Shown here one piece after another: positions 2,268 through 51,725 of a DNA stretch of 64,000 bases; the stretch's first letter is position 1; each line of letters opens with the position of its first letter. The translations under genes were made by a program, and so were the position numbers. This stretch comes from a candidate division WOR-3 bacterium (GTDB lineage Bacteria > Hydrothermota > Hydrothermia > LBFQ01): contig JBDRWW010000004.1 of NCBI GenBank assembly GCA_039802605.1, forward strand, positions 56,566 through 120,565, in the 5' to 3' direction. The notes below the pieces were generated by a model. That model saw nothing but the letters and a program-made list of their open reading frames with translations, was not told the DNA's origin and made no database searches.

Positions 2268-2268
2268 T

Positions 2269-8917: not shown

Positions 8918-10444
8918 ATGATATGGTTGGTATCGTTTACATTCAGCATTTGGAAATCCTTGGCGGGTGATAATAAAAATCAGGCGGTTCAGGTATTAGC
9001 AGGGGGAATATTATCACCAACCGCAAAATGGAGGACGAACTTTGGTTTTGATATTGTAAACCTTCTATGGGCCTCGCCCGCTATATGTAATGTTTCCAAT
9101 GCATACCCCGAAAATGAGGTGATAATAAAAGGGCATATATCACTGAGTGGAAATACCACACTATATGCCCTAAGGGGTACAGACGGTACCATACTTTGGA
9201 GTATTTCATTTTTTGGTATGGATCCTTCAAGCCCCGCCTGTGGAGACCTTGACGGCGATGGGTTGGATGAGATTGTAACGAAGACTTTCTCGGATGGCTT
9301 AAAGGCTTTGGATAATGATGGAACGGTTTTATGGACATTCCCAACCACCTATTCCTTTTCAAGCCCCAAAATAGAGGATGTCGTTTCTTCAAGCCCGGGT
9401 CCTGAGGTTATATTTATGGATCCAAGCGGTGGTAATTTGGTCTTGTATGTCTTATCGGCGAGTGGAACCCCTATATGGACGGCTAATGTTGGAATAGCCG
9501 AACAACCCGCTGCAACCCCGGCCATTAGCGATATAGATGGTGATGGGGTTAAGGAAATAATAATAGCAACCCTTTACAGCGGTTTAAGGGTATATGATGG
9601 ACAAACCGGAACGCTTGAATGGTCGTATTTCGCTCTGGCCATAAATCCAACACCTTCCGTTATTGACCTAAACAACGATGGTATTGAGGATATATTGTTT
9701 TCCAACAGTTCAACCATAATGGCCATTAGTGGAACGGGAACATTTATGTGGTCTTTTAATTTAAGAGCCCATACCCCACCTTCCGATACCCATGTGGTAC
9801 TTATGGAATATGTTGCTCCGGTATGGGATATAAACGGTGACGGATTTCCCGAGATATGGCTCGGAGATGGTGGGGATTCCTCAAATGTAAATAGCCACTT
9901 ATTAAGAATTGATCAAAACGGCTCTTCGGCCTCAATCAACTGGTTATATGGGATAAATCAGTGGGCCTATGACGGTGGAGGGGGGCTTGTTGATATAAAC
10001 AACGACGGTATATGGGATTTTATAAAGGCGGCGGATAACGGGTATGTTTATGCGGTAAGGGCGGATAACGGAACACCTGTTTGGAATTTTAGGTTTGACA
10101 ATTGCGGTTCGGGTGTTATAGATCCATCGGTTGCAATAGGGGACATTGACGCGGATAACTGTTCAGAAGTGGTAATAATAGGTTGTCAGAGCAGCTTCTT
10201 AGGGGGAAATATAGTGGCCGTGGCAATAGACAACTCTACACCGGTTTCGTCCTGTGCCGTCCTCTCCCGTGATGATGAGCTAAAAGCTTCCGAAATGAAA
10301 CCTTATGAAGGTGGGGAATTCAAGGTATATACCACAAGCGGTAGGCTAATGGGTACCTTTAAACCGGGTCAAAGGATTAAACTCAAACCCGGATTTTATA
10401 TAGTTAAAATGGGAACAAAAACCAAGGGTGTGCTTGTAAAGTAA
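8918..10444 (+). CDS. Secreted FG-GAP/PQQ-like beta-propeller protein with T9SS-like C-terminal sorting domain
   Basis: Repeats GDLDGDGLDEIV, DIDGDGVKEII, DLNNDGIEDI, DINGDGFPEI, DINNDGIWDFI; C-terminus VYTTSGRL..LKPGFYIVK..KGVLVK. Confidence 0.8.
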   Translation: MIWLVSFTFSIWKSLAGDNKNQAVQVLAGGILSPTAKWRTNFGFDIVNLLWASPAICNVSNAYPENEVIIKGHISLSGNTTLYALRGTDGTILWSISFFGMDPSSPACGDLDGDGLDEIVTKTFSDGLKALDNDGTVLWTFPTTYSFSSPKIEDVVSSSPGPEVIFMDPSGGNLVLYVLSASGTPIWTANVGIAEQPAATPAISDIDGDGVKEIIIATLYSGLRVYDGQTGTLEWSYFALAINPTPSVIDLNNDGIEDILFSNSSTIMAISGTGTFMWSFNLRAHTPPSDTHVVLMEYVAPVWDINGDGFPEIWLGDGGDSSNVNSHLLRIDQNGSSASINWLYGINQWAYDGGGGLVDINNDGIWDFIKAADNGYVYAVRADNGTPVWNFRFDNCGSGVIDPSVAIGDIDADNCSEVVIIGCQSSFLGGNIVAVAIDNSTPVSSCAVLSRDDELKASEMKPYEGGEFKVYTTSGRLMGTFKPGQRIKLKPGFYIVKMGTKTKGVLVK

Positions 10445-10455
10445 TCCTGCGGCCT

Positions 10456-10461
10456 TAAAAT
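10456..10461 (+). promoter_or_regulatory. Leaderless-type -10 promoter
   Basis: ggcct-TAAAAT, 8 nt before GTG 10470. Confidence 0.6.
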
Positions 10462-10469
10462 ATCAAACC

Positions 10470-10910
10470 GTGCATATAACATTAAAGCCTAACGTTGCGA
10501 AAATAACTTTTAGGGGATTAAAGGATAGACCGGGCACGGCGGCGGATTTGATATATGTTTTAAAGGATGAGGGTTTTACCCTTTTGGCCGCAAGTTTTGA
10601 CAGTTCAACGGGGGGTGTGGGCGATATATCCTTTATCATTTATGAGAGTGAAGGTTTGAAGGCAAAACGCAAGAAGGAAGAAATAGCGGAAAGATCAGGG
10701 GCAAGGGAGGTTATAGTTGATGCGGGGCTATCTTTTTTGGAATTCTTTGATGTTTTAAACCTTGAAGAGGTTTTTGAGAGGTTTGCGAGTTTGGGTATTA
10801 ATATAGAGTTTATAGCAATGACTTCTGGACATTTGGGGGTGGCTTTCCGTAGGGCAAAGTTAAACGAAGTTATAGAAATGTTTCAAGCCGAAGTTATCAA
10901 TTCTTACTAA
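10470..10910 (+). CDS. Stand-alone ACT-domain protein (aspartokinase regulatory-domain-like)
   Basis: VAKITFRGLKDRPGTAA..DISF, and a second ACT VFERFASLGINIEFI. Confidence 0.7.
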   Translation: MHITLKPNVAKITFRGLKDRPGTAADLIYVLKDEGFTLLAASFDSSTGGVGDISFIIYESEGLKAKRKKEEIAERSGAREVIVDAGLSFLEFFDVLNLEEVFERFASLGINIEFIAMTSGHLGVAFRRAKLNEVIEMFQAEVINSY

Positions 10911-11218
10911 TGAAGAAGTGGATTTTGGTTATTTCCCCTTCAATTTTGGGGCTTTTCCTTTTGTCCTTCAAAAACGAAAACATTGACGAAAGCGTTGGCG
11001 TGATAGTATTGCAGTTTGTAATGCTCGTACTCTTTGGGTTGATAACTTTGAGTTGGGTTTCAAGGTATATAAAGTTTGTGTATATAAATTGGCTTTTCGC
11101 CTTTGTGGGGATTATGAATCTTGCAATTGGTATTTTCGTGTTTCTTAGATTTTTGGACGGATATATTTCCCTACCCTTTTTCCTTATAGCATCTTACAGT
11201 TTTTTCAAAGTAAAATAA
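10910..11218 (+). CDS. Small multi-pass membrane protein
   Basis: 102 aa, 3-4 hydrophobic segments, TAATG overlap with upstream gene. Confidence 0.6.
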   Translation: MKKWILVISPSILGLFLLSFKNENIDESVGVIVLQFVMLVLFGLITLSWVSRYIKFVYINWLFAFVGIMNLAIGIFVFLRFLDGYISLPFFLIASYSFFKVK

Positions 11219-11244
11219 AGTACTTCGGCCTTAGAATAAAAATA

Positions 11245-11752
11245 ATGCAAACCGTTATAAAAGGGAAAAATTTGTTAGAGGCTTTAACCTATGAGGTGGT
11301 TGATGGGAAACCCATTTATTACCGGGGTTATAAGGGTGTTTTGGAGGGTAAAAAACAACCGGAGGAGGTTATGGGAAGTTCAACTTTACAAGCACTTTTG
11401 GTTTCAAGGTTATTTAAGCATCTGCTAAAACTTGAAGACAGTTGTTGATATAGGGATATTTGAAAAAAACAAGTTTAAACTCTCGGAGGGGTATTCCGAT
11501 GTTGCCCCGATTGTTGCGATAGAGGTGGATACGAAGGCGGAATTGGAGAATATAACCTTTATGGAGTATGTTGGCGAAAAGGTTAAAGACCTGTTTGAAG
11601 CGGGAACACAAAGAGTTATATGGATATTAACAAAGCCGAAGATTGTTATGGTGTTTGAGAGGGGTAAAGAGGGAAGAATATTAACTTGGGAAGATGAGGT
11701 TGAGGTTTTACAAGGGCTAAGGGTTAAGTTGTTGGAACTCTTTCAGCATTAA
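11245..11752 (+). pseudogene. Uma2-family (DUF820-like) endonuclease, frameshifted by an internal deletion
   Basis: N-part YEVVDGKPIYYRGYK..EEVMGSS ends at stop 11448; C-part DIGIFE..PIVAIEVDTKA..GTQRVIWI is in another frame; TAGAAT 7 nt upstream of ATG. Confidence 0.8.
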
Positions 11753-11762
11753 AATGAAAGCA

Positions 11763-12244
11763 ATGGAAACCGTTGTTAAGGAAAAAAACCAGAAACTCCT
11801 GGAAGTTCTAACCTATGAGGTAGTTGATGGGAGACCCATTTATTACCGGGGCTATAAGGATGCTTTGGAGGGTAAAAAACAGCCGGAGGAGGTTATGGCA
11901 AGCGGCGCCCTACATTCCAAGATATTATAGCGTTAGATAAGTTTAGAATTTGTGTAGGTGAAGTCGGGGTAAAAATAAACGATAGAAACATTAGGAGCCT
12001 GGATATGGCCATTTTTTATACGGAAGATACAAAAATAGCCATAGAGATTGATATAAGGGCGAAAGTTAAGAATGACACGGATTATATAATTCAAAAAACA
12101 AACGATCTCCTAAGGTTCGGTGTTAAAAGGGTAATATGAGTGGTGTTTGAATTTGATAAGGATAAAGGGGGAAGAATCCTTCAATGGGACGATGAGGTTG
12201 AGGTTTTACAAGGGGTAAAGTTTAAGCTTTCGGAATTGGTTTAA
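11763..12244 (+). pseudogene. Second tandem Uma2-family endonuclease pseudogene
   Basis: METVVK..YEVVDGRPIYYRGYK..EEVMASG then frameshift; GEVGVKI..LDMAIFY..IAIEIDI..GVKRVI, TGA at 12137 where copy 1 has Trp, ..WDDEVEVLQG; DNA-level similarity to 11285-11375 and 11688-11728. Confidence 0.8.
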
Positions 12245-14917: not shown

Positions 14918-16267
14918 ATGAAAAGGTTTTTGGTTTTATTATCCTTAGGCCTATTTCTAATATATGGATGTAAGAAGGCCGGTCAGGAGGTATTGGAGAT
15001 CAAAAAGGGTAAGATAGAAGAGGTTATAATAAATGTACATCCCGCCCTCGGTATAGTGAATCCAAAGGCTTTGGTATATTTACCACCAGATTACGACCCA
15101 AACAAGAAATATCCGGTTATTTATATGCTCCATGGGTTTGGAGGTGATTATAGGACATATGTGTATTACAACGGGGTTAATGAGATACTTGACTATATGA
15201 TTTCCACCGGGCAAATGGACCCGGTTATAGTTGTTATGCCCGATGGTAGAAACCTCGTAGGCGGTTCATTTTATACGAATTCAAGGCTTTATGACCCTTC
15301 AAGTCAAACATATATGCCATTAACGGTATTCGGGGATTACGAAACATATATGATAGACAGCTTGGTTGCGCAAATAGAAAGGAAATATCCCGTTAAAGGT
15401 GGTAGGGAAAATAGGGCTATTATGGGTTTGTCAATGGGCTCATACGGTTCGGCAAAACTATGGTTAAAGCACGCGGACATGTTTGGAGTTGTCGCTTTAC
15501 ATTCGGGTCCATTGGCGTTTGATATGTTAATTGACGAAAATGTTGTTGATAGTTTGTTAAAGGATTTTGAGGAAATAGGTGGTAAAAAACTCTGGATAAA
15601 GGATTACCTTGGAAGGGAACACCCCTGGCTAACCCTCGGCAACGGTTTGTCCGCGGCCTTTACCCCAAGGGTTGTCCCTTATAGCAACCCCACAGATTGG
15701 AGGGTCATACAGAACTGTTATTATCCGGGGGGTTTGGATTCCATAAACGGTGATTTCCTGCTTGATACCATGTTTATACCATCCTTTGGGATAAAGGTTT
15801 GTGTTGGTGTAAGGTTTCCAATGAGGTGGGATACAACGGGTCCTTATGCCTCATGCCTAACAACCGAACAGCAGGCCAAGCCCAACGCAAAGATGATATC
15901 CGAGGATTTTTGCGTTTGGAAAAAGTATCACGATCCATACACATTAATAGATTCCGCGGAGATTAATTTCCCAACGGAGTTTAGAAATACAAAGGTTTAT
16001 ATTGATGTGGGGTTAAAGGATGAACTAACCCTTTTGTCCCATAATAGAAAGTTTAAGGATAAGCTAAGGTCCAAGGGTTTAACAAACATCGTTTATGTTG
16101 AATTTGATGGCGCTTTGGGTTATCCAGCCGAACTCTTCCCCGGAAAGCACAGCAATTGGCTTTATGCGAGGCTGAAGAAATCCTTCACATTCATAAACAG
16201 GGCGTTCAAAGGCGAGGATATAAAAGCCGGTGAGTATAAGCAGTACGAAGGAAAAGACTATGAGTGA
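14918..16267 (+). CDS. Lipoprotein esterase (alpha/beta hydrolase, putative-esterase/CE1-like)
   Basis: Lipobox LIYGC after [29 protein letters not shown] nucleophile; DVGLKDE; GKH; start moved to 14918. Confidence 0.85.
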
Positions 16268-16742
16268 GGTTTATAAGGTTTTGAAAGAAAGTTTTGGCGA
16301 AAAAATAGGGCCGGAGATAGAGGATAGGGGTGAAAGGAGCATATATGTTGATAGGGATGTTATAGTTGATGTTATAAGGTTGTCCAAAGAGGCATTGGGT
16401 TTTGATATGATAATATACATTACCGCCGTTGATTATCTGGATTGGAAGCATAAAAGACCCACAAACAAAAGGTTTGAGGTGGTTTATAACCTCTACTCCA
16501 CGCAGAGGAGGGAAAGGATAAGGTTTAAGGTGGCAGTTGATGAAAATGAGGATATTCCTAGTATAACGGGTGTTTTTAAGGGTGCCAATTGGATGGAAAG
16601 GGAAGTCTATGATATGTTCGGCATAAAGTTCTCGGGTCATCCCGATTTGAGGAGGATTTTACTCTGGGAAGGGTTTCCCGGCCATCCGCTTAGAAAGGAC
16701 TTTTCCGAAAGGAGATTTGTTCCAATACCACCCAACGAGTGA
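16260..16742 (+). CDS. nuoC: NADH-quinone oxidoreductase subunit C
   Basis: [50 protein letters not shown]. Confidence 0.92.
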
Positions 16743-17494
16743 TATTATTATTGGCCTTTGACAGTTTAAGCGTTGATTCTCTGTGGAAAATTGCAAAAAA
16801 GTGGCGTGCGGGGTATGATGTTGCTATTGTGGATTCCGCGCGGGATAGAATAATTTCCATAGGTGAAGGGGCGATTTTTTATATAATAAAAAAGCACATA
16901 TCAAAGAAGGATAGGCTTGGGGTAAGGGCTGTAAGGGATATGTGTTTAAAAAAACCGGAATACTGCACAAGGGGTATATCTTACCTCTTGGATTTAAGGG
17001 ATACAATAGCCCTTAAAAATGCCCTTTATGTATCCTCGGAGGTGAAAATACCGGGTTTGGAGGGAAAACTCCTAGATGTTTTAAAAAGGCAGAAAAAGGG
17101 CCCTTGGATAAGCAGAACTTTAAGGGCTATATATAAATCGGGTGATGATAGGGTTTGTAATGTATTGAAGGGTTATTTAAATCATCCTTACGAGTATGTT
17201 AGGATGAGGGCGGCTTTGTTGGTGGGAGAAAAGGGGTGTATAAAACTCAAAGGTTATATGTGGAAGATGATGAAGGATAGCGTTTTTACCGTTAGGGATG
17301 CCGCCAAATTGTCCTTGGCGAAACTCGGGTTTTCATTAAACGAATTTGAAAAAAACATAGAGAAAATCCCCGATTACGAGGTTATGAAACTCCTATATAT
17401 GAATTGTCCTTCGGGAGATTACCTAAGGGTTGCCGAAAAGAATGTCGATAAAAGGATTTTCAACACTTGGATAGATTTTATAAGTTGCAAGTAG
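16739..17494 (+). CDS. HEAT-repeat protein with short hydrophobic N-terminus
   Basis: [37 protein letters not shown]. Confidence 0.65.
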
Positions 17495-18825
17495 GGAAAA
17501 CGGCGGGTAATGTATTAAAGGTTTTTTCCGGACAAAGCTTATCCTTTGTCATAAACACATTCACGGGTTTTTTACTCCTCCACTATTTAACACCCGATGA
17601 TTTTGGGCTTTATAGTGTCCCAGCGGATTTCATAAACATGGTGGTTTTGGGGGTTTTATCGCTCTTTACAAACTTAAACCAAAAGTTCATATCGGAATAC
17701 CTCGGAAGGGGCGAGGTAAATAAGTTAAAGGGGGTTCTATGGTTGTCCCTGCTATACTTTTCCGCTTGGGGTATTATATTCTCTGTGGTTTTTTTAGCCT
17801 TTGCGGAGTACATATCGGAATACATTATGAGAAATCCGGAATACTCATACCCTTTACGTTTATATTCGTTCGGAATTCCTTTTTTGGCCTTATCCCTTTA
17901 CATGTCTTCGGTTTTAAACGGTTTTGGAAAATTTAGGGAATTAGCCTTAAACGATGTAATTATACCAACGGTTTCAAGGGCAATTTTTTTGGTAATCCTA
18001 TTACCCCTTTACCCATTAAAGGTTTTTGTCGCCATATTCTCCACAAACATAAAGTATTTTGTGAATTTCTTGAGCAATTTATGGGTATCTTGGGGGGTGT
18101 TAAGGAAAGTGTTTTTCGGGCAAAAGGAATACGACTTTAAATCTTGGCTTAGGTATGGGATTCCGATTTGGTTGAAGTATTGGTTAGGACTTATACAAAA
18201 CAACATAAAACCGGTTCTTGTGGGTTCCTTTGTTGGAGTATTTTCCGGGGGTGTTTTTAAAGCCGCCTCTTTGATTTCAAGCGGGGTATATATCCTTGAA
18301 GTATCGGTTTCAAATGTCCTTTTCATAGAGTTGAGTAAGGAAATTGGAAGGGGAAACTTTTTTAATTCGGCTTTGAGGATTAGGGGTATAACCCTTAAAA
18401 TGTCCGCCATTATGGGTGTATTTTCTTTAATATCCGCAGTTTTAGGAGTATTGGTTTTAAGGTTTTTCGGTAAGGGTTATGAGGGAGGGGGAATAATATT
18501 ATCCGTGATTATCTTGGGGTATTATATAAATTCCCTTTCTGGGATTTGGCAGGCATTTTTACAAGCCTCGGGGAGGTCGGATATGGTATTTTTAATATCT
18601 TTGGTGTATTCCGTTGTAGACATTGGTTTGGTCTTGATGCTTATAAAACCATTGGGGATACTGGGGGCAGCTTTATCCTTTCCTATATCCGCCGTGTTAA
18701 TAACCCTTTTGAGGTTTTATTTGTTTTATAAAATAAGCGGTGTTAAACCTATGGGATTAAAAACGCTTATTCTATCTTCCACCTTCGTAGTACTGTTCTT
18801 GATAATCATACCCGTAATCGCATAA
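17467..18825 (+). CDS. Polysaccharide flippase (Wzx/MOP family); start may be TTG 17485
   Basis: 12-14 TM segments; LTPDDFGLYS; LIKPLGILGAALS. Confidence 0.8.
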   Translation: MDRFYKLQVGKTAGNVLKVFSGQSLSFVINTFTGFLLLHYLTPDDFGLYSVPADFINMVVLGVLSLFTNLNQKFISEYLGRGEVNKLKGVLWLSLLYFSAWGIIFSVVFLAFAEYISEYIMRNPEYSYPLRLYSFGIPFLALSLYMSSVLNGFGKFRELALNDVIIPTVSRAIFLVILLPLYPLKVFVAIFSTNIKYFVNFLSNLWVSWGVLRKVFFGQKEYDFKSWLRYGIPIWLKYWLGLIQNNIKPVLVGSFVGVFSGGVFKAASLISSGVYILEVSVSNVLFIELSKEIGRGNFFNSALRIRGITLKMSAIMGVFSLISAVLGVLVLRFFGKGYEGGGIILSVIILGYYINSLSGIWQAFLQASGRSDMVFLISLVYSVVDIGLVLMLIKPLGILGAALSFPISAVLITLLRFYLFYKISGVKPMGLKTLILSSTFVVLFLIIIPVIA

Positions 18826-19923
18826 TCCTTCCAACAAGCCCTTAATCCTATTTTCAAAAGCCTCTATTTTTACCTTGGAATAATCCGAATATATCTCAAA
18901 GTATTCGGCAAAACTTATTCCACCCCCCTCGTAAAACCTCTTGGCAGCATTTATAAGGTTTTTGTAATGTAATATATCCCTTTCTGGTCTAGAAATTTTA
19001 AAATTTGGCTCCAAGTTTTGCAAATTCCCCTTTATGGTTTCCAATCTCTTTAAAGAGTGTGCGGCCTTGGAATATAACCTCTTCGTTTCATCAAATTCAA
19101 AAACTACCCTAAAACCCACAACCGTTGAAGGGGTGGTTATGTTCCCGTTCCAAACCTCACCGAATAGGTAAAGTTTTGGAAACCACCATAAGGATTCCGC
19201 AAAAGCCTTATAGTTTAAGGCTTTAATCTTTAAGCTGTCAGAGGATTTTGCGCATTGGGGCTTAAAGTTTTGATTAAGTTCCAGGCCTTCAAGGGTTATA
19301 TCCAAAAGACTTTCAAGAGAATCCTTCAAGGATTTTTGGGTTTTTATGAAATATTCCCTTAAATCCTTTAAACCTTCAACTTCCCCCTTTATCCTTTCAA
19401 GCTTATAACCTTCCAGTCTTTTTAATCCCCCAAGGGTATCAAGTTTTACCAATAATTCTTCGCCCAAACTTATAAGGGAATCCAATACGCTTATTACACT
19501 GTCCAGATTTATCAAAATCCTGAGATAAACCCTTAAATTGTTTTTAACATTTTCCTTTAAGCCCTCTATCTTTGAATACTCCCATTCCCTCATATACCGG
19601 GAAGATTTTATTGCAAATATAACCTGAGGGTTTAACGGATTCCAATAAAAACCAAAGCCCCATCTCCTCCAAAAGGGGTAGCCAATTTCAATCTCCCTCT
19701 CCGTAAGCCTGAGGTTTACGGTATCGGCATATTGAACCCTTATAGTGGGCAAAGGCGATATGTTAAATTCATCGTAAAATAGATACAGTTTTGGGAATAG
19801 GTATCCCTTTGGAATATCGTAGATAGCCTTCAAGTCGGAATAAACCCAAAAAGTTTTGCTCTCAAAAATCCTGTCAAAGACCCTTAAAATACTGTCTTCC
19901 GTGATGGAAAGTATGAAGATCAA
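18772..19923 (-). CDS. Hypothetical envelope protein, possibly a divergent TolC-like outer membrane protein
   Basis: Two repeats of PKLYLF beta segments plus long helices; RFYEGGGISFAEY resembles the TolC C-terminal motif. Confidence 0.45.
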   Translation of the reverse strand: MIFILSITEDSILRVFDRIFESKTFWVYSDLKAIYDIPKGYLFPKLYLFYDEFNISPLPTIRVQYADTVNLRLTEREIEIGYPFWRRWGFGFYWNPLNPQVIFAIKSSRYMREWEYSKIEGLKENVKNNLRVYLRILINLDSVISVLDSLISLGEELLVKLDTLGGLKRLEGYKLERIKGEVEGLKDLREYFIKTQKSLKDSLESLLDITLEGLELNQNFKPQCAKSSDSLKIKALNYKAFAESLWWFPKLYLFGEVWNGNITTPSTVVGFRVVFEFDETKRLYSKAAHSLKRLETIKGNLQNLEPNFKISRPERDILHYKNLINAAKRFYEGGGISFAEYFEIYSDYSKVKIEAFENRIKGLLEGLCDYGYDYQEQYYEGGR

Positions 19924-19930: not shown

Positions 19931-19960
19931 AGTTTAAAGTTGTAAAATTTCCTTTAAAAT
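19931..19960. promoter_or_regulatory. Divergent pair of -10 boxes
   Basis: Minus acaactt-TAAACT 19936-19931 (7 nt to TTG); plus TAAAAT 19955-19960 (8 nt to ATG). Confidence 0.55.
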
Positions 19961-25627: not shown

Positions 25628-25897
25628 TTATTTAACATCCCTGAGACCCAGTTCCTTTATAACCTGAACATACCTCCTATAATCCGTGCGCTTCAAATAC
25701 CTCATAAGTTTCTTCCTCTTCTCCACCAGTTTTAAAAGCCCATACCTTGAATGCACATCCTTTTTGTGCCTCTTAACATGCTCGGTTAGGTGGTTTATCC
25801 TCTGGGTTAATAATGCTATTTGCACCTCCGGGGATCCCGTATCCTTTTCGTGCCTCATAAACTTTCCTGCTACCATTTTCTTTTCTTCCCTTAGCAT
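25628..25897 (-). CDS. rpsO: 30S ribosomal protein S15
   Basis: [24 protein letters not shown]. Confidence 0.97.
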
Positions 25898-25905
25898 AAG
25901 CGGTT

Positions 25906-25957
25906 ATTATAAACCCGAAAAGGAATTCCAACAGGGGAAACCTTTCAACTTTAAAAT
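25906..25957. promoter_or_regulatory. Divergent -10 boxes (rpsO / yebC)
   Basis: Minus TATAAT 25911-25906 (8 nt to ATG); plus tcaactt-TAAAAT 25952-25957 (7 nt to ATG). Confidence 0.65.
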
Positions 25958-25964
25958 ATTCACA

Positions 25965-26711
25965 ATGGCAGGGCATAGCAAGTGGGCTCAGATAAAACAC
26001 AAAAAGGCTAAGATGGATGCAAAGAGGAGTAAAATTTTTAACAAGTTGATCAGGGAAATTCAGGTTGCCGCAAGGCTTGGGGGAGGAGATCCGGATTTGA
26101 ATCCTAGGTTAAGGTTGGCCATAGAAAAGGCCAAAGAGGCCAATATGCCCTGGGAAAATATAGAGAGGGCTATAAAGAGGGGAACGGGTGAGCTTGAAGG
26201 TACCCAATATGAAGATGTAATTTACGAGGGTTATGGACCGGGTGGTGTTGCCTTTATGATAAAGGTTTTAACCGATAACAGGAACAGAACAACGAGTGAA
26301 ATTAGGCATATATTTTCAAAGTTTGGGGGTCATTTGGCAAGCCCTGGAAGCGTTGCATGGCAGTTTGTGGAAAAAGGGGTTATATATGTTGATGGCAATG
26401 TTGAGGAGGATAAAATCCTTGAAGTTGCTTTGGAAGGTGGAGCAGAAGATGTTAAAAGGGAAGGGGATACATGGGTTATATACACATCCACAGAAAACTT
26501 TTCCGCGGTTAAAGAAAGTATAACGAAAAGTGGAATACCCATAAGTAATGCCCATATAACGATGATGCCCCAAAATACGGTTAGGGTTGAAGGGAAGAAT
26601 GCGGAAACCATAATAAAACTCTTCCAGTCGTTGGAGGAGCACGACGATGTTCAGGAGGTTTATTCAAACTTTGATATACCCGAAGAGATATTGGAAAAGA
26701 TGGAAGTATAA
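25965..26711 (+). CDS. yebC: YebC/PmpR family protein
   Basis: [38 protein letters not shown]; start moved to 25965. Confidence 0.95.
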
Positions 26712-27736: not shown

Positions 27737-27777
27737 GAACCCCCAAATGTGGTAAAACCACATTATAATATATTCTT

Positions 27778-29196
27778 ATGATAGCCATAATAATTGCGCA
27801 AAGCTGCATAAACATTTATGGGATTAATAGGTTGACTAACTATTCGGGCCACGACTATTGGGGGTCTGATGGCTACTTAATATCGTCTAGTTTCTTCAAC
27901 GAGAGGACACCCCAAAGCCTGTATATAGTGGGTGATACGGTGCATATCTTATGGGTAAGGCAAGGTGGAGGGAATAGGTATAACAGGTCAAGGGATAGGG
28001 GTGCAACATGGGATTGGTGTACGGGTTCGGACTGTCATGGCGTGCAGGTACTAAATTACGGTTGGGAATCCTCTATCGTTGCCCGATATTCAAAAGTTCA
28101 TGCAACATCGTACTGTTGGGATTGCTCTCCCTCTTCATGGGTTCCGTATAACAGGTCATTAAATAACGGAACCAGTTGGGATTATCCGTCATCCGGTCAA
28201 AATATATTTGCGGCTTCCGAGTACGGACTTGGGGCGAGAAGTTTGGATTCCCCGGCCATGGACGCTACTCAAAGTGGTGATACCGTACTGCTTGTTGTTG
28301 ATGCCTATTCCCAAGGCGTTAGGGTTAAGAGAACTTTTGATGGTGGAACCACTTGGGGCCCTTACGGGGGAATAGTCGTGGCAACGCCTTCTTATACCGG
28401 AGAAAGGCATCCACAAATGGCGTACAATAATGCCGGTAAATTTTATGTTTGTTATACGGATTTCCCCTATGTTATGGTAACATACAGTGTGGATTACGGA
28501 AGCACTTGGAGTGCCCCTTATCCCCTTGATACATTATCGGTTAATTTGGGTTATAATTCCTGTCATATATCCGCGGATGGGAATTTCGTAAGCGTTGTAT
28601 GGTTTGATATGAAAGGGAATGCTATAAATGTGTATTATAGGGAATCCGTGGATGGTGGGCTAACATGGAGGCCAAAGGTAAATATTACGGGTTTAACCTC
28701 AGTAGGTGATACCGCCGCGGGTGCAACCGTTGTAAATCACGGATATATTACATACATAACGTGGTTTGAGCGTTCTTCAAGGACCGGTGGTGACTTTGAG
28801 ATTATGGAGGTTTGCAAGCCCCATCCGGATTCCTCTTGGTATCCCGTTCAGAGGATAACATACATAGGCGGTAGGTCCTTGTGGCCTATGGTTGCGTATA
28901 ATTGGTCTGGGAGATGGGGAATAATATGTTGGCAGGATAACGCACCGGGGAACTACGAAGTTTATTGCTCGTCATTTATACCCCTACTTGGGGATACAAC
29001 CCTGGGTTATAAAGAAAATCCGTTAAAAGAAAACCCATTCACGGTAAAAGGTAATTTGTTAATCCTAAACGGGGAATATGAGGTTTTTGATGTTAATGGT
29101 AGATTAAGGGCGAAGGGGGAAGGTGGGAGTTTGATGTTGAGAAAAGGTATATACTTCATACGGATAAAGGGCAAAACATATAAAGTTAAATTATAG
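27778..29196 (+). CDS. Secreted BNR/Asp-box (sialidase-like) beta-propeller protein with T9SS-like C-terminal domain
   Basis: Asp-boxes SRDRGATW, SLNNGTSW, TFDGGTTW, SVDYGSTW, SVDGGLTW; C-terminus VFDVNGRL..LRKGIYFIRI..KVKL; TATAAT 8 nt upstream. Confidence 0.8.
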   Translation: MIAIIIAQSCINIYGINRLTNYSGHDYWGSDGYLISSSFFNERTPQSLYIVGDTVHILWVRQGGGNRYNRSRDRGATWDWCTGSDCHGVQVLNYGWESSIVARYSKVHATSYCWDCSPSSWVPYNRSLNNGTSWDYPSSGQNIFAASEYGLGARSLDSPAMDATQSGDTVLLVVDAYSQGVRVKRTFDGGTTWGPYGGIVVATPSYTGERHPQMAYNNAGKFYVCYTDFPYVMVTYSVDYGSTWSAPYPLDTLSVNLGYNSCHISADGNFVSVVWFDMKGNAINVYYRESVDGGLTWRPKVNITGLTSVGDTAAGATVVNHGYITYITWFERSSRTGGDFEIMEVCKPHPDSSWYPVQRITYIGGRSLWPMVAYNWSGRWGIICWQDNAPGNYEVYCSSFIPLLGDTTLGYKENPLKENPFTVKGNLLILNGEYEVFDVNGRLRAKGEGGSLMLRKGIYFIRIKGKTYKVKL

Positions 29197-34058: not shown

Positions 34059-34079
34059 ACATCCGTAGAATATCCTACT

Positions 34080-36979: not shown

Positions 36980-37817
36980 CCGCTATTAGGTTGAGAGCAT
37001 ACTGCAATGCCCTTGTGGGGTAAAACTTTGAGAAGTCCGAAGGTTCAACCTTCCAACATTCCCCAACCCTTCTAATTTCAAACCAAACCTTATGTAGGAG
37101 TTTATCCTCGGAAATAATCCCCTTTATCAACATAAAATCGCCGCATACAAAGGTTTCCTTAACCACAAAGTGGGAACCATCCGGCAAAACATAATCACCG
37201 CTCAAATCCTTGATTTTAATCCATTTTAACTTTGGAATGTTCAACTCCGTTTCGGGTATTTTAAAGTCGCACACCTTTTCCAAAAAGAATACCGCCTCGT
37301 ATATACTCTTCCCCATTTCCCTCCATTTCCTCTCATACTTTGTACCGAATTCCCTATAACTTTCTGAAACATAACCCCACCAGCACCCGCTTTTAATAGC
37401 GTTATCGTAAAACCACATCAAAGCGGGAAGGTGGTCGGAAACTATTGATACTTGGCCATCGGATTTTACCCTTAATGTCAATAATCTCCAAAAATCCTCC
37501 GAAAATATCCTTTTATGAGTATGCCTCTTTTTTGGCCAAGGGTCTGGAAACAGGGAATAAACCCTGTGGAATTTTAAATTCTTAGCCCCAAACATCAAGA
37601 AAGGCCATACATCCCCCCAAACCAAAATTACATTGCTAAAATTCCTAAGCCTCTTTGAGGCCCTCTTTATTGATTGCCACGATACATCCACACCTATGTA
37701 GGTTATGTTTGGGTTTTGACCCGCCAAAAACTTTATAAACTCTCCATTCCCGCAGCCTATTTCCAACTCTATGTTTCCCGAGATTGCCAATTCATCCGAT
37801 GCAATCCTTATTTCCAT
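36963..37817 (-). CDS. trmB: tRNA (guanine-N7)-methyltransferase
   Basis: LEIGCGNGEF, FPDPWPKKRH, TKYERKW. Confidence 0.9.
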   Translation of the reverse strand: MEIRIASDELAISGNIELEIGCGNGEFIKFLAGQNPNITYIGVDVSWQSIKRASKRLRNFSNVILVWGDVWPFLMFGAKNLKFHRVYSLFPDPWPKKRHTHKRIFSEDFWRLLTLRVKSDGQVSIVSDHLPALMWFYDNAIKSGCWWGYVSESYREFGTKYERKWREMGKSIYEAVFFLEKVCDFKIPETELNIPKLKWIKIKDLSGDYVLPDGSHFVVKETFVCGDFMLIKGIISEDKLLHKVWFEIRRVGECWKVEPSDFSKFYPTRALQYALNLIADEISR

Positions 37818-38737
37818 TTTATGTCCCTTATTATCCCTTCAAGCCTCAAAATTAACCCCAACTTGTTGTTTGATTCCGGGGCATAAACCCCCGCATCTAT
37901 CAAATAAAACTTCCCATTATTGTTAAATGCGTATGTTAAAAATGGCCCACCCACAAGTAAGCTGTCGTTTTTCCAAATCCCGTAAATCTTCAAAACCGAA
38001 ATGCCGTCCAAGTAATCGGATACGGAATATGAGTATTCCCTAAGGGCTACATCCCCTTTATAAATTTCGGATGTTAAGCTATCCCTAATATCCAAAACCC
38101 TATCAAAATTCAATTCATCTTCCTCCTTAACAAAAAACAGGATAAACCTATCCGGATTGTGTTTGTTTATAACCAAAACATCCTTTGATTCGTAATACAC
38201 ATTCCAACCCTTGGGTATGGGAATGTAAAACCCAAACTTATCCTTAACCTTTTTCCTCAAACCCATATCCACCCCAACCATCAACTCCACATTTGAAACC
38301 TCTTTTAGCATTTTGTAGTTTAAACTGTCAAATATACCCTGTATGTTATCGGAAACCAATCTTAGCGAAGTCCTGCTATCATAGGCGCAAAACATAACGA
38401 CAAAATCCCCCTTAGCAAATATGTCCCTACGGATGAACACGCCCTCTTCTTTGTTGCATAAATCCCAAAGGGAATCGTTGGGAAGGAGGAATATTATTTT
38501 GTTGCGATAATCCTGATAAACCTTAAAATTTTCCCATTTTATTGGATGGATTTTGAAAAGGGTTTCCGGCTGTGGGGTATTATAAACCCTTATGAAGTAT
38601 TTGTAAACCGCACCTGCGGCGAATTTGCTATCCTCCGAATAAGCCAAAACCACTTCCCTACTCGTCCCCTTAACAAACCCCCCACCCTTACCACAGGCAA
38701 AAATAAAGGGTAAAATTAACAGAAACCTACCCAACAT
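37808..38737 (-). CDS. DUF4837-like lipoprotein
   Basis: Lipobox FIFAC; TPQPE, GIW..GGPF, VYAP..K; start moved to ATG 38737 overlapping the upstream stop. Confidence 0.65.
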   Translation of the reverse strand: MLGRFLLILPFIFACGKGGGFVKGTSREVVLAYSEDSKFAAGAVYKYFIRVYNTPQPETLFKIHPIKWENFKVYQDYRNKIIFLLPNDSLWDLCNKEEGVFIRRDIFAKGDFVVMFCAYDSRTSLRLVSDNIQGIFDSLNYKMLKEVSNVELMVGVDMGLRKKVKDKFGFYIPIPKGWNVYYESKDVLVINKHNPDRFILFFVKEEDELNFDRVLDIRDSLTSEIYKGDVALREYSYSVSDYLDGISVLKIYGIWKNDSLLVGGPFLTYAFNNNGKFYLIDAGVYAPESNNKLGLILRLEGIIRDIKWK

Positions 38738-40888: not shown

Positions 40889-41722
40889 TTACCCTTGGGG
40901 AATTTGTTTTTGGATTATTTCCTCGCAGATTTTAAAAATATCGGGATTTATACCCAGTTCCTCGCCCTTTTTACGGTTTCCCAAAAGATCTTTAACGGTT
41001 ATTATTCCATCGTTAAAGAGTTTATTGGCGGTTTTTTCATCAATCTTTAAAATCGTTATGGGGAATGTTTGAGTTTTGTGTATCAAATATTCCAGGCCTT
41101 CGCCTTTCGGGTAATTCCATCCCAAAAGGTTTAACCCATAGCATTTGGAAAACCTTATTGCGTCTTGTGTGAATTTGGTGTTTGTTATGAGGAAAGGCTT
41201 AATATCCCTATAAACCCCCTTTATATCGTTAAACCTTGAAACCACATACATTGAAATTTTTACATCAACCTTTGTCTCAAAGTTTTCGTGATGTTTGCAT
41301 TCAGCCATTAGTCTCTCTCCTTCCCTTTCCGCAATTACATCAACCTCATGGCTAACACACTTCCCATCCACAATATTACCGATGGTAATCCTATACCCAA
41401 GCTCCTCAAATATCTTCCCAACAAACCTTTCAAAGGGATAACCCGATGGCCCGAGTTTTGCTAATCCTTCCTTTAAGCCGTACAAAGAGGCACTAACAGG
41501 TTTAACCCTTTCCAATGATTTAAAAACCAAGGCGTAAAGCTCCCTTGTTGTTATCAAATCGTAAATATACGGTTCTACCTCTTTTAATACCTCCCCTATC
41601 GTATTATCATCTGCCCCCACCCTCTTTAAAGCCCTTATAACCTTTCCCTCATCGTATTCTTCCACCTCGCCGTTCCTCTTTACAACCCTTATTATTTCAG
41701 GTTTTGTAAGGGTTTGATACAT
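40889..41722 (-). CDS. ATP-cone domain + Mrr-type restriction endonuclease domain protein
   Basis: VVKRNGEVEEYDEGKV (ATP cone); GYPFERFV; HEVDVIA..AECKHH (PD-D/ExK); TNTKFT.DA. Confidence 0.82.
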   Translation of the reverse strand: MYQTLTKPEIIRVVKRNGEVEEYDEGKVIRALKRVGADDNTIGEVLKEVEPYIYDLITTRELYALVFKSLERVKPVSASLYGLKEGLAKLGPSGYPFERFVGKIFEELGYRITIGNIVDGKCVSHEVDVIAEREGERLMAECKHHENFETKVDVKISMYVVSRFNDIKGVYRDIKPFLITNTKFTQDAIRFSKCYGLNLLGWNYPKGEGLEYLIHKTQTFPITILKIDEKTANKLFNDGIITVKDLLGNRKKGEELGINPDIFKICEEIIQKQIPQG

Positions 41723-42261
41723 TTTATGGCGGCGTTTATAAAGGCCTCCTCCTCTTCATCCGATTCATGTGTTGCCACAGCCTGATATAAAACCCTACCC
41801 GTTTCAACATCCAAAACCTTAAACCCAACGGTGGCTTTTATTTTTAACGATATTGTACCGCTTCCAATCGGATAACCTACCTTTTCCGCATCCAATATTG
41901 AAAAATACCCCACGGTTTTAGCCCCTAAGATCTTCCCAACTTTGGGGGCATAGTCTCCAACAAATCCGGAGTGGGAAAACTCCTGCTCGTCCAAAACCTT
42001 GTCTATATCCTTCCTGTCAATTATGTCAAAATACGGAACCTTTAAAAGTTCTATTAAAACCTTGTTGTATATGCTTTCCTTGATGTGTCCGCTTATAAAA
42101 CGATTTGCCTCCCCTTTTATAACATCAACATCGGGAATTAGGGCAAATGTCATTATGCTATCCGTTTTAAACTTTGGAGATAGGGAGTAATTTAAACTTT
42201 CCTCGGATTCCTTGGTTGTTGCACAGGATAAAAGGAGTAAAAGCAATATCAAAACTTTCAT
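41692..42261 (-). CDS. CsgG/HfaB-like lipoprotein
   Basis: Lipobox LLSC; FDIIDRKDIDKVLDEQ, VGKILGA, VLDVETGRV; TAAAAT 8 nt upstream. Confidence 0.75.
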   Translation of the reverse strand: MKVLILLLLLLSCATTKESEESLNYSLSPKFKTDSIMTFALIPDVDVIKGEANRFISGHIKESIYNKVLIELLKVPYFDIIDRKDIDKVLDEQEFSHSGFVGDYAPKVGKILGAKTVGYFSILDAEKVGYPIGSGTISLKIKATVGFKVLDVETGRVLYQAVATHESDEEEEAFINAAIKCIKPLQNLK

Positions 42262-44924: not shown

Positions 44925-44998
44925 GCGTCCGTAGCTCAGATGGATAGAGCGTCGGCCTCCGGAGCCGAAGGTCGCGGGTTCAAGTCCCGCCGGACGCG
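44925..44998 (+). tRNA. tRNA-Arg(CCG), CCA not encoded
   Basis: Acceptor stem GCGTCCG/CGGACGC; D arm GCTC..GAGC; anticodon arm TCGGC-CTCCGGA-GCCGA; T arm GCGGG-TTCAAGT-CCCGC. Confidence 0.96.
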
Positions 44999-45001
44999 CT
45001 T

Positions 45002-46681
45002 ATGAATAGGCCTTGGTATAGCCATTATGAAAAAGGGGTTCCAAGGAGTATAGATTATCCGGAAAAACCCCTTTGGGTTATCCTTAAAGATGCCGCCCAA
45101 AACTATCCGGAAAACACGGCATTATGGTTTGAGGGTTGGCAATGCACATACAAGGAGTTATACGAGTATTCCTTAAAGTTTGCAAGTTTTTTGCAGTCCT
45201 TGGGGGTTCAAAAAGGGGATAGGGTAGCCTTAATGCTCCCCAATTTGCCGCACTATCCCATATCGTATTATGCCACATTAATGGTTGGCGGTGTTGTTGT
45301 TCAACTAAACCCCTTATATACACCTTCCGAATTGGAATTTTTATTAAACGACTCGGAAACAAAAGTCCTGATAACCCTTGACATCTTTTGGGATACCGTA
45401 CAGAAGGTCGCGGATAAGGTAAATGTGGAAAAGTATATAGTCGGTAAAATTCCGGATTTCCTGCCTTTTATAAAGGGTTTGCTCTACCCCTTGGTTGCCA
45501 ATCCAAAACCCAAGGCCGTTCCATTTGATGGTCTTAAATTTTTCAGGTTTTCGGATTTTTTAAAACATTCGGAACCAAACCTCCCGGATATAAACCCTAA
45601 GGAGGATCTTGCGGTTTTGCAATACACCGGTGGGACAACGGGAACACCAAAGGCTGTTATGCTAACCCATTTTAACATTTTGGCAAACACCTATCAATCG
45701 GTTTCTTGGTTTACGCAATTGGAACCCGGGAAAGAGGTTTCATTGTGCATAATCCCCTTCTTCCACAGTTATGGTATGACCGTTGCGTTAAACTTTTCCG
45801 TGAAGGTTGGAGCAAAAATGGTTTTGATGCCAAAGTACCATACAAAAGATGCCCTAAAACTCATTCAAAAGCATAAGGTAACACTGCTTCCCGGGGTTCC
45901 GCAGATATACGCCACAATATCAAACCATCCGGAGGTTTCAAAGTATAATTTGAGGTCTATAAAGGCATGCATATCCGGGGCCGCACCCCTACCCTTAAAG
46001 GTCAAAGAGGATTTTGAAAGGCTAACGGGCGGGAAATTGGTAGAGGGTTATGGGCTTTCGGAGGCCTCGCCGGTAACCCATTGCAATCCCATTTACGGTT
46101 TAAATAAACCCGGAAGCATTGGATTGCCATTTCCCGATACGGATGCAAAAATCGTTGATTTAGAGGATGGTAAGAGGGAAATGCCCGTAGGGGAAGCGGG
46201 TGAGTTGATAATTAAAGGCCCTCAGGTTATGAAGGGTTATTGGAAAAGGCCGGATGAAACCGCCCTCGTTCTAAGGGATGGTTGGCTTTACACGGGTGAT
46301 ATAGCGTATATGGATAACGACGGGTACTTTTACATAGTGGATAGGAAAAAGGAAATGATAATCGTGGGTGGGTTTAACGTTTATCCTAGGGAGGTTGAAG
46401 AGGTTTTAATGAAACACCCGAAAGTTAAAGATGCAATAGTTGTGGGTATTGAGCACCCAATAAAGGGTGAGATTGTTAAGGCTTATGTGGTTTTAAAAGA
46501 GGGGATGAGCGCTTCTTCCGAAGAATTAATAAACTTCTGCAAGGAACACCTGGCTCCATACAAGGTACCCGCGGAAATAGAATTCCGTAAAGAACTCCCA
46601 AGGACGGTAGTGGGTAAGGCTTTGAGGAGGGTTTTAAAAGAAGAGGAGGAAAAGAGGTTTAAGCCTTATAAGGATAAGTGA
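45002..46681 (+). CDS. fadD: Long-chain-fatty-acid--CoA ligase
   Basis: QYTGGTTGTPK, EGYGLSEASP, GPQVMKGYW, TGDI, VDRKKEMI, VGK. Confidence 0.92.
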   Translation: MNRPWYSHYEKGVPRSIDYPEKPLWVILKDAAQNYPENTALWFEGWQCTYKELYEYSLKFASFLQSLGVQKGDRVALMLPNLPHYPISYYATLMVGGVVVQLNPLYTPSELEFLLNDSETKVLITLDIFWDTVQKVADKVNVEKYIVGKIPDFLPFIKGLLYPLVANPKPKAVPFDGLKFFRFSDFLKHSEPNLPDINPKEDLAVLQYTGGTTGTPKAVMLTHFNILANTYQSVSWFTQLEPGKEVSLCIIPFFHSYGMTVALNFSVKVGAKMVLMPKYHTKDALKLIQKHKVTLLPGVPQIYATISNHPEVSKYNLRSIKACISGAAPLPLKVKEDFERLTGGKLVEGYGLSEASPVTHCNPIYGLNKPGSIGLPFPDTDAKIVDLEDGKREMPVGEAGELIIKGPQVMKGYWKRPDETALVLRDGWLYTGDIAYMDNDGYFYIVDRKKEMIIVGGFNVYPREVEEVLMKHPKVKDAIVVGIEHPIKGEIVKAYVVLKEGMSASSEELINFCKEHLAPYKVPAEIEFRKELPRTVVGKALRRVLKEEEEKRFKPYKDK

Positions 46682-49279: not shown

Positions 49280-49607
49280 TCTCTCCCCTTTCCCTTCTCC
49301 TTTCCTTTGTGAGTTTATCCTTAACCTTCTTTATTTCACGGGAAAGTATATCCTTCATCTCATCAACAACGGACATAGGGTCTTTGTTTTTCACCTCCAC
49401 CCTAAGGGTTTTACCTTTTAACTTTAACACACCTACGCCTTTGTATAATCCTCTCTCCTCTTCAAGGTGTATGTCTAAATGTTGAGCAAGATCGGAAAAT
49501 CTGTTTAAATCGTCTAACCTTTTGTGTATATACTGCATGAGTACATCCGTAGTGGGGAAATTTTTAACATATATGTTTATTGGCAGTTTTTCGTTTTCTC
49601 CTTTCAT
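49272..49607 (-). CDS. hpf: Ribosome hibernation factor (HPF/RaiA-like)
   Basis: INIYVKNFPTTDVLMQYIHKRL..VVDEMKDILSREIKKVKDKL; tcaacct-TAAAAT 9 nt upstream. Confidence 0.75.
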   Translation of the reverse strand: MKGENEKLPINIYVKNFPTTDVLMQYIHKRLDDLNRFSDLAQHLDIHLEEERGLYKGVGVLKLKGKTLRVEVKNKDPMSVVDEMKDILSREIKKVKDKLTKERRRERGEID

Positions 49608-49619
49608 AGGTAAGGTATT

Positions 49620-51725
49620 TTAAGGTTGATAAATGAACTTCTCATTAAACACCTTTTCACCTATCCTACTGATTTTGAGAATACAATTCTTCCGGAGGTA
49701 TTAAATATATCAAATCCGACATAAGAGGGTTAATATATCTTTGCTTATAGAAAAATGCTTGGTACGGTTAGCATAAATGGGTTTTTCTTCAACATTTACA
49801 AGACACCTTGGAGATACCTTTATTATGAATCCCTCATGGTAATCTCCATAATTTCCGAGTCTTATGTACGGTTGGGGATACGAAGATGTATCGGCAGAAT
49901 TTAGGAAAAGGCCACCCACCAATAAAGTATCTCCCCTGGACATAATAAGGGTTGCCCTATCATCGCCATCGCCTGTTATTGTGTATGCTCCTATGCATGC
50001 ACTTAAATTCTTATCTAAACCCACTATAACCACATCGCTATACACATTACTTGTATCTCCGGATGTAATATCGCATCTCGTACAGTCAGAACCCCCCAAG
50101 TTCCTGCCCTTTGTGATTACAGCGAGTAAAAGGGTATCACCTTTAAAATTCAAAACATTTCCATAATTCAGCCTATCCGTATCGGGCGAAGATACCACAA
50201 CCATGCCAAGGAAATTGCTTAATGTTGAATCCATTTTAATAATAACCACATCGGGATTACCCGTATTTCCTATAATAGTCCTAGGAAGGCTTCCCCCAAA
50301 AGTTGCCGAATTTTCTACATTTGCGGAGATATATACATTCCCCGCATTGTCAGTGATTATGTTATTTGCGTTATCAAATCCCGGTCCTGCAAATAGCACG
50401 CCCATTAATATAGTATCAAGAGATAAGTTTAGCCTCAGAAGATACACATCCCTTAAACTAAAAGTTCCAAACATAGTATCAATAGGTAGATCGTAGGATA
50501 GGTATGTGGTAGCTATCAAGTAAAATGAACCGTTAGCCTTTATAAAATCCTTTGTATAATCTTCATTAGAACCGCAGATTATTGTTGTGTTTATGTAGTT
50601 TAAAGATGTATCCAACCTTGTTATAAATATGTCTCCATACCCACAAACACCCAAACCTAAAAAGGTTTTACTCATCCCGAAATCGTTGTAGTTGTATGTA
50701 GTTCCAAGTGCATATATTTCTGTTGTATCAACCAAGACATCCAGAATCTGATCGTCATCAGAACTCGCCAATATTACTGTTTTTATATGATTGTCAAGAT
50801 TTGTGGAAAGTTTTGTTATGAAAGCATCATAAAAAGGGTAAGAGGTGGTTCCATAAACCGTACGGGAAGGTGCAAAGTCCAACGACTGGGTAAAACCTAC
50901 AATTAATACATTTCCGGAATAATCCTTTACTACTTTTAAGGCATAATCGTGTTCGCTACCGGAGACTATGGCGACGGAAATAACCGAATCCATGGAAGGA
51001 CTCAATTTTACTACGAAAGCGGATGTTCTATTAGCAACCGTATTCCCAAACCTATAATTTGGAGGCAAGAAGGTTAAATAATCTAAGGTATAACCAGCCG
51101 CGTACACATACCCGCTGTCATCTACAAATACATCCATTACCCCGTCAAAACTATTACTGCTAAGGATGAATGTAGGGTCTATAACCATGTCCCTTTCCCT
51201 ATCGTATCCCTTAATATTAAATGTTAGATTTTTGCCGGATATTATCGGCTTTATTTTTAATTCTCTGCTACCCTGATAGGCCTTTATTGATTTTATACGG
51301 AAAAGTTCATAACCTTCCTTGTATATCATAATATCACCGTTAACCTCATAGATTTCCGCTCCTTCAAAAGCAAGGTTTATTTTTTCAGGGTCTGATCCTT
51401 TACGGATATAGAAGTAAAATTCCAGTTCTTTATCCTTTAATCCGTTTATAACCAAGTCTATGCCGCGATATATTCCTTCTAACTTTACGGATCTGTATGC
51501 GAGAATATGTTTTTCCCCATTTCTCGAGTAAAGGTGTAGAGGTACCCCGTATTTACTTATACCCGCTATGCTTGATTTGTTTCCTCCAACAAATCTAACC
51601 TTTACCCCGCGTATCCGTAGGTTTGAATCCTCTATCACTATACTCCTTGTTAGATTGCACCACTTTTTACCATTTTTTACAAATAATCCATCGGCAAGCG
51701 AATAAAAGGCAATTATCCAAATCAT
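49620..51725 (-). pseudogene. SBBP-repeat beta-propeller secreted protein; ORF 49710-51725 intact but T9SS-like C-terminal domain broken by two deletions
   Basis: IYRGIDLVI..LEF N-domain, VIDP, repeats VDDSGYVYAAGYT / DAFITKL; out-of-frame CTD remnants PSYVGFDIFNTSGRIV and RIGEKVF downstream; SD AAGGAGGTG upstream. Confidence 0.7.

Follow-up and report, generated by a model that had tools for sequence, protein, structure and literature searches.

Very short, lysine- and arginine-free hydrophobic presequences on predicted exported beta-propeller proteins of a WOR-3 bacterium

Can a hydrophobic peptide of 7-11 residues without any basic residue take the place of a signal peptide? The question is raised by a 64,000-nt stretch of contig JBDRWW010000004.1 (hereafter the window) from a hot-spring bacterium of candidate division WOR-3 that is related to Caldipriscus. 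Three of its open reading frames (ORFs), called here 8918, 27778 and 51725 after the positions of their start codons, encode proteins with such N-termini. In PMC12190922, the usual signal peptide is described as 15-30 aa long with a basic n-region. A preliminary description of the window had drawn attention to these ORFs, and our translations confirmed three ATG-initiated genes whose products have hydrophobic starts of 7-11 residues free of lysine and arginine (K/R). Judged from the sequences, the predicted presequences are genuine, conserved, very short and K/R-free. We consider it probable, with appreciable reservations, that they work as minimal signals for the general secretory (Sec) pathway and signal peptidase I (SPase I), cleaved at an [A/S]|Q junction in one of the three families.

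ORF 8918 (8918..10444, + strand) encodes a 508-aa FG-GAP/PQQ-like beta-propeller protein with the N-terminus MIWLVSFTFSIW; its K/R-free presequence MIWLVSFTFSI (11 aa, 8918-8950) abuts an invariant Trp12. ORF 27778 (27778..29196, + strand) encodes a 472-aa sialidase-like BNR six-bladed propeller that begins MIAIIIAQSC, in which the 7-aa presequence MIAIIIA (27778-27798) is followed by an invariant Gln8 (27799-27801) and Cys10. The product of ORF 51725 (49710..51725, - strand) is a 671-aa SBBP/DUF7948 protein with the N-terminus MIWIIAFYSLAD, whose presequence MIWIIAFYSLA(D) (51725-51693) abuts the 'FxxNxGxW' start of DUF7948. All three presequences (7-11 aa) consist of Met and a run of about 5-10 hydrophobic residues (I/L/V/W/F/A) without K/R, and the first K/R occurs no earlier than residue 13 (8918), 18 (27778) or 17 (51725). 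Gene-start statistics were based on 58 curated genes of the window. Six of these lack D/E/K/R at positions 2-7 and have at least five strongly hydrophobic residues among these six positions, where composition leads one to expect 1.7; they are the five ORFs singled out in the preliminary description and the gene for the RNase Y membrane anchor.

The upstream sequences leave no room for a longer signal in any of the three genes, as had been claimed before. An in-frame TAA is the ninth, fourth and fifth codon upstream of 8918, 27778 and 51725, respectively. ORF 8918 is preceded by a TAGAAT -10-like box (8905..8910, + strand) 7 nt before the ATG, a leaderless layout, and ORF 27778 by a TATAAT -10 box (27764..27769, + strand) 8 nt before the ATG, with the in-frame TAA inside the box. 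ORF 51725 lies inside an operon; a Shine-Dalgarno sequence, AAGGAGGTGA (51730..51739, - strand), precedes its ATG by 4 nt, and it is in frame with the stop codon TAA (51738-51740) of the lipoprotein gene upstream. Because these -10 boxes or the Shine-Dalgarno sequence stand together with the upstream TAA, a longer N-terminus is excluded for all three ORFs. Fusion of 51725 to the in-frame lipoprotein gene was rejected, as the strong Shine-Dalgarno sequence lies between the two and the orthologs start at the same residue; an alternative genetic code or read-through was also rejected, since TAA is the commonest stop (32/60) and also occurs inside a -10 box. The same layout was found in other genomes. 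An alignment scan of genome contigs with the BNR family yielded four loci orthologous to the 27778 gene (L001-L004, 60-87% identity), in all of which TATAAT is followed after 8 nt by ATG, and the box itself contains a TAA that lies in frame, 2-3 codons before the start.

TAnAAT boxes are common in this position. They lie 7-9 nt 5′ of the start in 18 of the 58 window genes versus 131 of 5770 (2.3%) ATG/GTG/TTG positions, are embedded in a conserved CAnCyT-TAnAAT context, and also precede GTG and TTG starts (10470, 32145 and 60701); further examples are at 19955-19960 and 34066-34071. These data suggest that leaderless mRNAs are widespread in the WOR-3 lineage. Leaderless mRNAs are well known in Actinomycetota, Deinococcota and archaea. 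The predicted WOR-3 transcripts resemble them in the spacing of 7-9 nt between -10 box and start codon, by which transcription would begin at or next to that codon, but they are predicted from sequence and include GTG and TTG starts. The term 'leaderless' was absent from the WOR-3 literature where it was looked up. The layout also bears on gene calling: the longest ORF of a YebC/TACO1 gene (25686-26711, + strand) starts at GTG 25686, its Pfam domain begins only at residue 98 and ATG 25965 has a TAAAAT box 7 nt upstream, indicating that genes are called too long here when the first possible start behind a stop is chosen.

The short starts are conserved in relatives from the protein collection (P-numbers). 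All 20 BNR relatives (P0245-P0263 and P0267; 50-99% identity, N-terminal region included) have K/R-free starts, three fragments that begin downstream being left out of the count; examples are MVALLLS-QTC, MVALNVILA-QC, MFVILIS-QSC and MLWIVVS-QAC, and Asn breaks the hydrophobic run in some of them. In the SBBP family, residues 1-9 lack K/R in 16/16 relatives (P0126-P0141; 26-55% identity). In the FG-GAP family, 9-14 K/R-free residues precede the invariant Trp in seven of eight close orthologs, the remaining one (P0011) beginning downstream, and the Trp itself, W12 of 8918, is invariant in 46/46 aligned homologs. Across 41 non-redundant short N-termini, residues 1-7 contain K/R in none and D/E in one. 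The preliminary description had named conventional long signals in the orthologs, with the present genes as truncated alleles, as an observation that would speak against it; the orthologs proved short in all three families. Ortholog starts were checked at the DNA level for the BNR family (the four loci), and those of the other families are database protein N-termini.

Trp occupies position 2 or 3 in 10 of the 41 starts, across the three families and P0285, a distant relative of the product of a neighbouring gene (52817, below) that starts MIWLILGISLE. Trp at this position is unusual for an h-region. The start M-I-W-[ILV]-[IV] recurs in unrelated secreted families (P0001, P0003, P0126, P0128, P0132, P0285 and others), and plain hydrophobicity does not explain this recurrence.

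Homologs in other phyla carry a canonical Sec/SPase I signal of about 20 residues with K/R at the very place where the short presequences stand. All 11 distant BNR homologs (P0268-P0278, 24-29% identity) have canonical K/R signals ending in ...A|QWEPDVRLT; canonical FG-GAP relatives (MKRVILTALSIGLMPVLGYG|Q...) have 29-46 residues before the Trp; and P0141 of the SBBP family reads MIVILLSIFVENKGQ where canonical relatives have ...LPLSFEANRGQ after a long signal. The BNR junction is [A/S]-Q in 11/11 non-redundant N-termini with I/L/V at -3, and neither Q8 nor C10 varies among 12 BNR orthologs. The endings ...A|Q and ...G|Q occur in canonical signals of this lineage as well, and Gln follows short and canonical signals alike (Gln8 of 27778, L001-L004, P0013, P0035 and P0101). 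Gln at +1 thus holds for the BNR family, where the residue is invariant, and not for 8918 and 51725, which have none.

The beta-propeller assignments were upheld by Pfam for 8918 (FG-GAP_3, 6.8e-17; PQQ_2, 1.7e-10) and 51725 (DUF7948, 4e-20, residues 35-185 matching profile positions 55-214), and by AlphaFold2 and Foldseek for 27778, whose best structural matches are the sialidase-like glycoside hydrolases 5muk and 4irt (E 1e-10). The AlphaFold2 models of 27778 and 8918 are confident overall, and in each a disordered linker joins the propeller to a beta domain at the C-terminus. In the 27778 model (mean predicted local distance difference test score, pLDDT, 87.6), residues 1-6 are helical with pLDDT below 50, the first strand spans residues 11-18 and the linker residues 407-417; in the 8918 model (mean pLDDT 80.2), residues 1-16 have pLDDT below 50, the linker spans residues 451-464 and the C-terminal beta domain residues 468-507. 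In these models the presequences lie outside the propeller and outside the predicted fold.

The three proteins had also been described as bearing C-terminal sorting domains (CTDs) like those of type IX secretion system (T9SS) cargo, and this held in part. Comparison of 35 WOR-3 tails with 11 PF18962-bearing tails by hhalign gave a probability of 95.2% (E 2.6e-8) over the last 49 columns, and some orthologs pass the TIGR04183 threshold, pointing to the predicted WOR-3 tails as shortened T9SS-type tails. The scan of 39 relatives and neighbours with TIGR04183 returned six passing sequences (P0126, P0127, P0128, P0130, P0281 and P0285), nine below threshold and 24 without a match; all passers except P0281 have short starts, and those five (P0126, P0127, P0128, P0130 and P0285) score 24.1-30.8 bits. 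Among the window proteins, 27778 has a short CTD at residues 421-471 that scores 19.0 bits against a TIGR04183 cut-off of 23, 8918 has a short CTD-like tail without a match to the TIGR04183 or PF18962 hidden Markov model (HMM), and 51725 has a broken CTD and no CTD HMM match. The SBBP orthologs P0126-P0141 are about 55 aa longer than the 51725 product and end in a CTD. A tblastn search located the CTD remnant of this gene, PSYVGFDIFNTSGRIVFSKSVG followed by a stop, at 49664..49729 (- strand), where it corresponds to residues 669-690 of P0126 (16/22 identical) and is read in frame -1, whereas residues 1-664 match frame -3. The CTD of 51725 is thus lost through a frameshift and an early stop, and the same 671-aa product is present on 15 contigs of the protein collection, so the frameshift is probably no assembly error.

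Conventional signals occur beside the short ones in the same lineage. Four lipoproteins of the window serve as contrast: 51738..52820 (- strand; MKRFLCALVFGVVLFG|C, with a TAAAAT box upstream), 14918..16267 (+ strand), the CsgG-like 41692..42261 (- strand; MKVLILLLLLLS|C) and a DUF4837 protein at 37808..38737 (- strand; MLGRFLLILPFIFA|C). As previously noted, the lipoproteins keep longer signals, but these are 12-17 aa long rather than 13-18; they have basic n-regions and canonical lipoboxes. Similarly, a TonB-dependent receptor encoded at L004 carries the signal MKRFLVGLFALLVALPLFG|Q, and its gene has a strong Shine-Dalgarno sequence; the same contig has two short-start genes, MFVILIS-QSC and MMGIILVVG-QAC. 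The short sequences thus appear to form an additional signal class that accompanies the normal one and does not replace it.

How far does this class extend? The preliminary description listed two further ORFs with an M-I-hydrophobic start, and their hydrophobic residues were confirmed, but the start codons are GTG and TTG, not ATG. ORF 19923 (18772..19923, - strand, TTG) encodes a 383-aa probable TolC/OEP-like outer-membrane protein that begins (M)IFILSI followed by TEDS. An ESM Atlas feature score of 0.97 to OEP/TolC clusters, being based on language-model features, is a lead only; the Pfam OEP match is weak (E 0.055, 13.7 bits), and no match was found among PDB sequences (P0005). ORF 16739 (16739..17494, + strand, GTG) begins (M)ILLLAF; its start is uncertain and overlaps the stop of a nuoC-like gene. 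It is a HEAT-repeat protein, and the domain search revealed HEAT repeats only and no sign of export (P0004). An LptA-like protein of Caldipriscus has the N-terminus MFFLLLS, and its gene start is preceded by a TATAAT box. Since the probable TolC-like and the LptA-like proteins have them too, the short signals are apparently not confined to T9SS-type cargo. It is conceivable, though we hold it somewhat more doubtful than not, that the Caldipriscus-related clade exports a whole SPase I-type class, comprising CTD cargo, TolC-like and LptA-like proteins, by charge-free presequences of 7-11 residues with the formula Met, 5-6 hydrophobic residues, [A/S] and then Gln.

We infer Sec export, cleavage and use of a T9SS-type route, as follows. 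The first 7-11 residues would replace the canonical Sec/SPase I signal peptide of homologs in other phyla as a detachable element. The very hydrophobic core would engage the signal recognition particle (SRP) and SecYEG without n-region charge, as a minimal Sec signal; the peptide would be removed at the conserved [A/S]|Q junction, at least in the BNR family; and the proteins may then reach the outer membrane or the cell surface via their T9SS-type CTDs. T9SS cargo depends on Sec, as stated in PMC12618676. Like canonical Sec/SPase I signals, the presequences occupy the extreme N-terminus, stand where homologs have their signal with respect to the mature domain, have a hydrophobic core, evolve fast with hydrophobicity kept and, in the BNR family, have a small residue before the junction. 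They differ in lacking a basic n-region, in a core of 5-9 and a total of 7-11 residues with almost no c-region, and in the frequent Trp at position 2-3. The Gln after the presequence, the order of propeller, disordered linker and C-terminal beta-sandwich tail, and the several short-start relatives above the TIGR04183 cut-off recall the Q-rule and type A T9SS cargo of Bacteroidota; here, in contrast, the host is WOR-3 and the tails, of about 50 aa, leave the N-terminal third of the model unmatched. The Q-rule is Bacteroidetes-specific and not valid for the 'entire FCB group' according to PMC5837995. The SPase II lipoprotein signals of the same genome are also short and very hydrophobic, but they keep K/R at positions 2-4 together with the lipobox Cys.

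Several observations weigh against this proposal. The core of 5-6 residues compares with the usual 7-15, and the peptides fall far below 15-30 aa (PMC12190922). A peptide of this size is too short to span the bilayer and present its cleavage site to SPase I in the textbook manner. Both 8918 and 51725 lack Gln and a clean -3/-1 site, the candidates being TFS|IW and SLA|DG. No TIGR04183 match was obtained in 9/10 BNR and 6/6 FG-GAP orthologs scanned, and the CTD scores of the window proteins are below the cut-off (19.0) or absent, with one CTD broken. Outside the BNR family, the N-termini of the orthologs rest on the starts chosen by gene callers. Moreover, canonical signals co-exist with the short ones, so the modified Sec/SRP/SPase machinery proposed earlier is not required. 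Neither the window nor L001-L004 contains a gene for Sec, SRP, SPase or T9SS components (PorK/L/M/N, SprA, PorU/V).

Other readings of the same N-termini have to be weighed. The presequence could be an uncleaved short tag that binds the membrane or a chaperone, or a targeting motif, the recurrent M-[IVL]-W-[ILV]-[IV], for a route other than Sec/SPase I. Its inability to span the membrane, the recurrence of Trp at position 2 or 3 in a quarter of the starts (10/41), the unclear -3/-1 sites of 8918 and 51725 and the mere six or so residues ahead of the conserved 'FVENKGQ' start of DUF7948 in P0141 would all suit such a tag. However, the invariant BNR [A/S]-Q junction equals the canonical cleavage sites of the same lineage, the sequence apart from its hydrophobicity varies freely as in signal peptides, and no candidate for an alternative machinery was seen in the window or at L001-L004, so that we regard this reading as unlikely, if deserving of serious attention. 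It is very unlikely that the N-terminal residues form part of the mature structure, perhaps as a propeller-closing strand, in proteins without any signal. Beta-propellers are often closed by N-terminal strands, and the presequences abut the conserved domains without a linker; on the other hand, the models place residues 1-6 (27778) and 1-16 (8918) in low-confidence helix or coil with confident strands only from residues 11 and 34, canonical homologs have a cleavable signal at exactly this position, and CTDs in family relatives and the many invariant Cys of the BNR family speak for exported proteins.

The BNR start MIAIIIAQSC might instead be an atypical lipoprotein signal processed by SPase II, with Cys10 lipidated. 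This Cys is invariant, 1-2 residues after the Gln, and the 17036 gene of L004 reads MMGIILVVGQAC. The lipobox has the motif L-[ASTVI]-[GAS]-C, however, which is not compatible with Gln at -1 or -2 or with the variable spacing (Q-C or Q-x-C); in the true lipoproteins of the window a basic n-region precedes a canonical lipobox; the invariant Cys of the family number 10, which, being even, would allow for disulfides; and the 8918 and 51725 families have no Cys or lipobox there. We judge lipidation highly improbable. Least credible are artefacts, arising from miscalled starts, from pseudogenes and truncated alleles, or from a different genetic code. Two neighbouring secreted-protein genes of the window are indeed frameshifted, and the 'starts' of 16739 and 19923 are simply the first GTG/TTG after a stop. 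Against this stand the TAA stops 4-9 codons upstream, the correctly spaced -10 boxes or Shine-Dalgarno sequence, the identical architecture at 4/4 orthologous loci in other genomes, the hydrophobicity kept at 26-65% identity and, for the genetic code, the status of TAA as the commonest ordinary stop; this explanation is extremely improbable and already largely refuted.

If the presequences do drive export, they would lie below the usual bacterial minima: the n-region is uncharged, the core has 5-6 residues and a c-region is all but lacking. They would provide a natural test case for the minimal needs of SRP, SecA/SecYEG and SPase I. Should the whole class outlined above exist, its members would be the shortest Sec signals yet described in nature, read beside normal ones in the same cell, and the way in which a thermophile membrane recognises and cleaves them would have an unusual geometry. 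Such signals would be invisible to current predictors, so that the secretome and surface proteins of WOR-3 would be under-called, and an export tag of 7 aa of thermophilic origin would be of biotechnological interest. We found no literature on short signals in WOR-3 or Caldipriscus and none joining type IX secretion with WOR-3; in the WOR-3 papers in which they were looked up, the terms 'secretion', 'signal' (PMC12285271), 'signal peptide' and 'T9SS' were absent. According to PMC12285271, a strain of WOR-3 in culture possesses both an inner and an outer membrane as well as genes for lipopolysaccharide (LPS). Because the leaderless promoters pin the starts and a cultured strain exists, the export question is directly testable.

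The assignment of the window to its source agrees with its proteins: the best relative of the 8918 product is 98% identical and named 'candidate division WOR-3 bacterium' at NCBI, and further relatives are labelled Candidatus Caldipriscus sp. or, for metagenome-assembled genomes, Thermotogae/Thermotogota. Ordinary housekeeping genes of the window include those for PNPase, ThrRS, PheT, RuvABC, an LptF/G-type permease, RseP and RNase Y.

Two other predicted CTD-bearing proteins are encoded in the window. The gene at 52817..54962 (- strand) is split by a frameshift near 54755 into a Cys-rich N-terminal piece (54738-54962) and the main frame (52817-54781), and its product scores 22.9 bits with TIGR04183 and 21.5 bits with PF18962. 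Residues 10-62 of P0280 (721 aa, 60% identical) map to frame -3 (54893-54756) and residues 68-721 to frame -1 (54754-52820). In the 5′ region of the gene, toward RseP, a perfect (TTTC)5.8 repeat lies on the + strand (54933-54955); the frameshift and repeat could reflect slipped-strand phase variation or decay. The gene was considered as a fourth short-start case and dropped, as it is frameshifted and the N-terminus of the ortholog (MLASVGDND...) is uninformative. The second, at 63329..64000 (- strand), is the C-terminal part of another SBBP protein with DUF7948, SBBP and a CTD (TIGR04183, 22.0 bits), whose N-terminus lies beyond the window.

At the other end, positions 1-5295 form a low-GC segment (0.306 over 1-4000, compared with about 0.39-0.45 elsewhere) that encodes a 751-aa ORF without a Pfam family and a 1008-aa AAA_11/AAA_12/UvrD-like helicase, and may represent a foreign or defence-type island. 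A tRNA-Arg (CCG) gene is located at 44925-44999 (+ strand), directly 5′ of an acyl-CoA synthetase-like gene at 45002.

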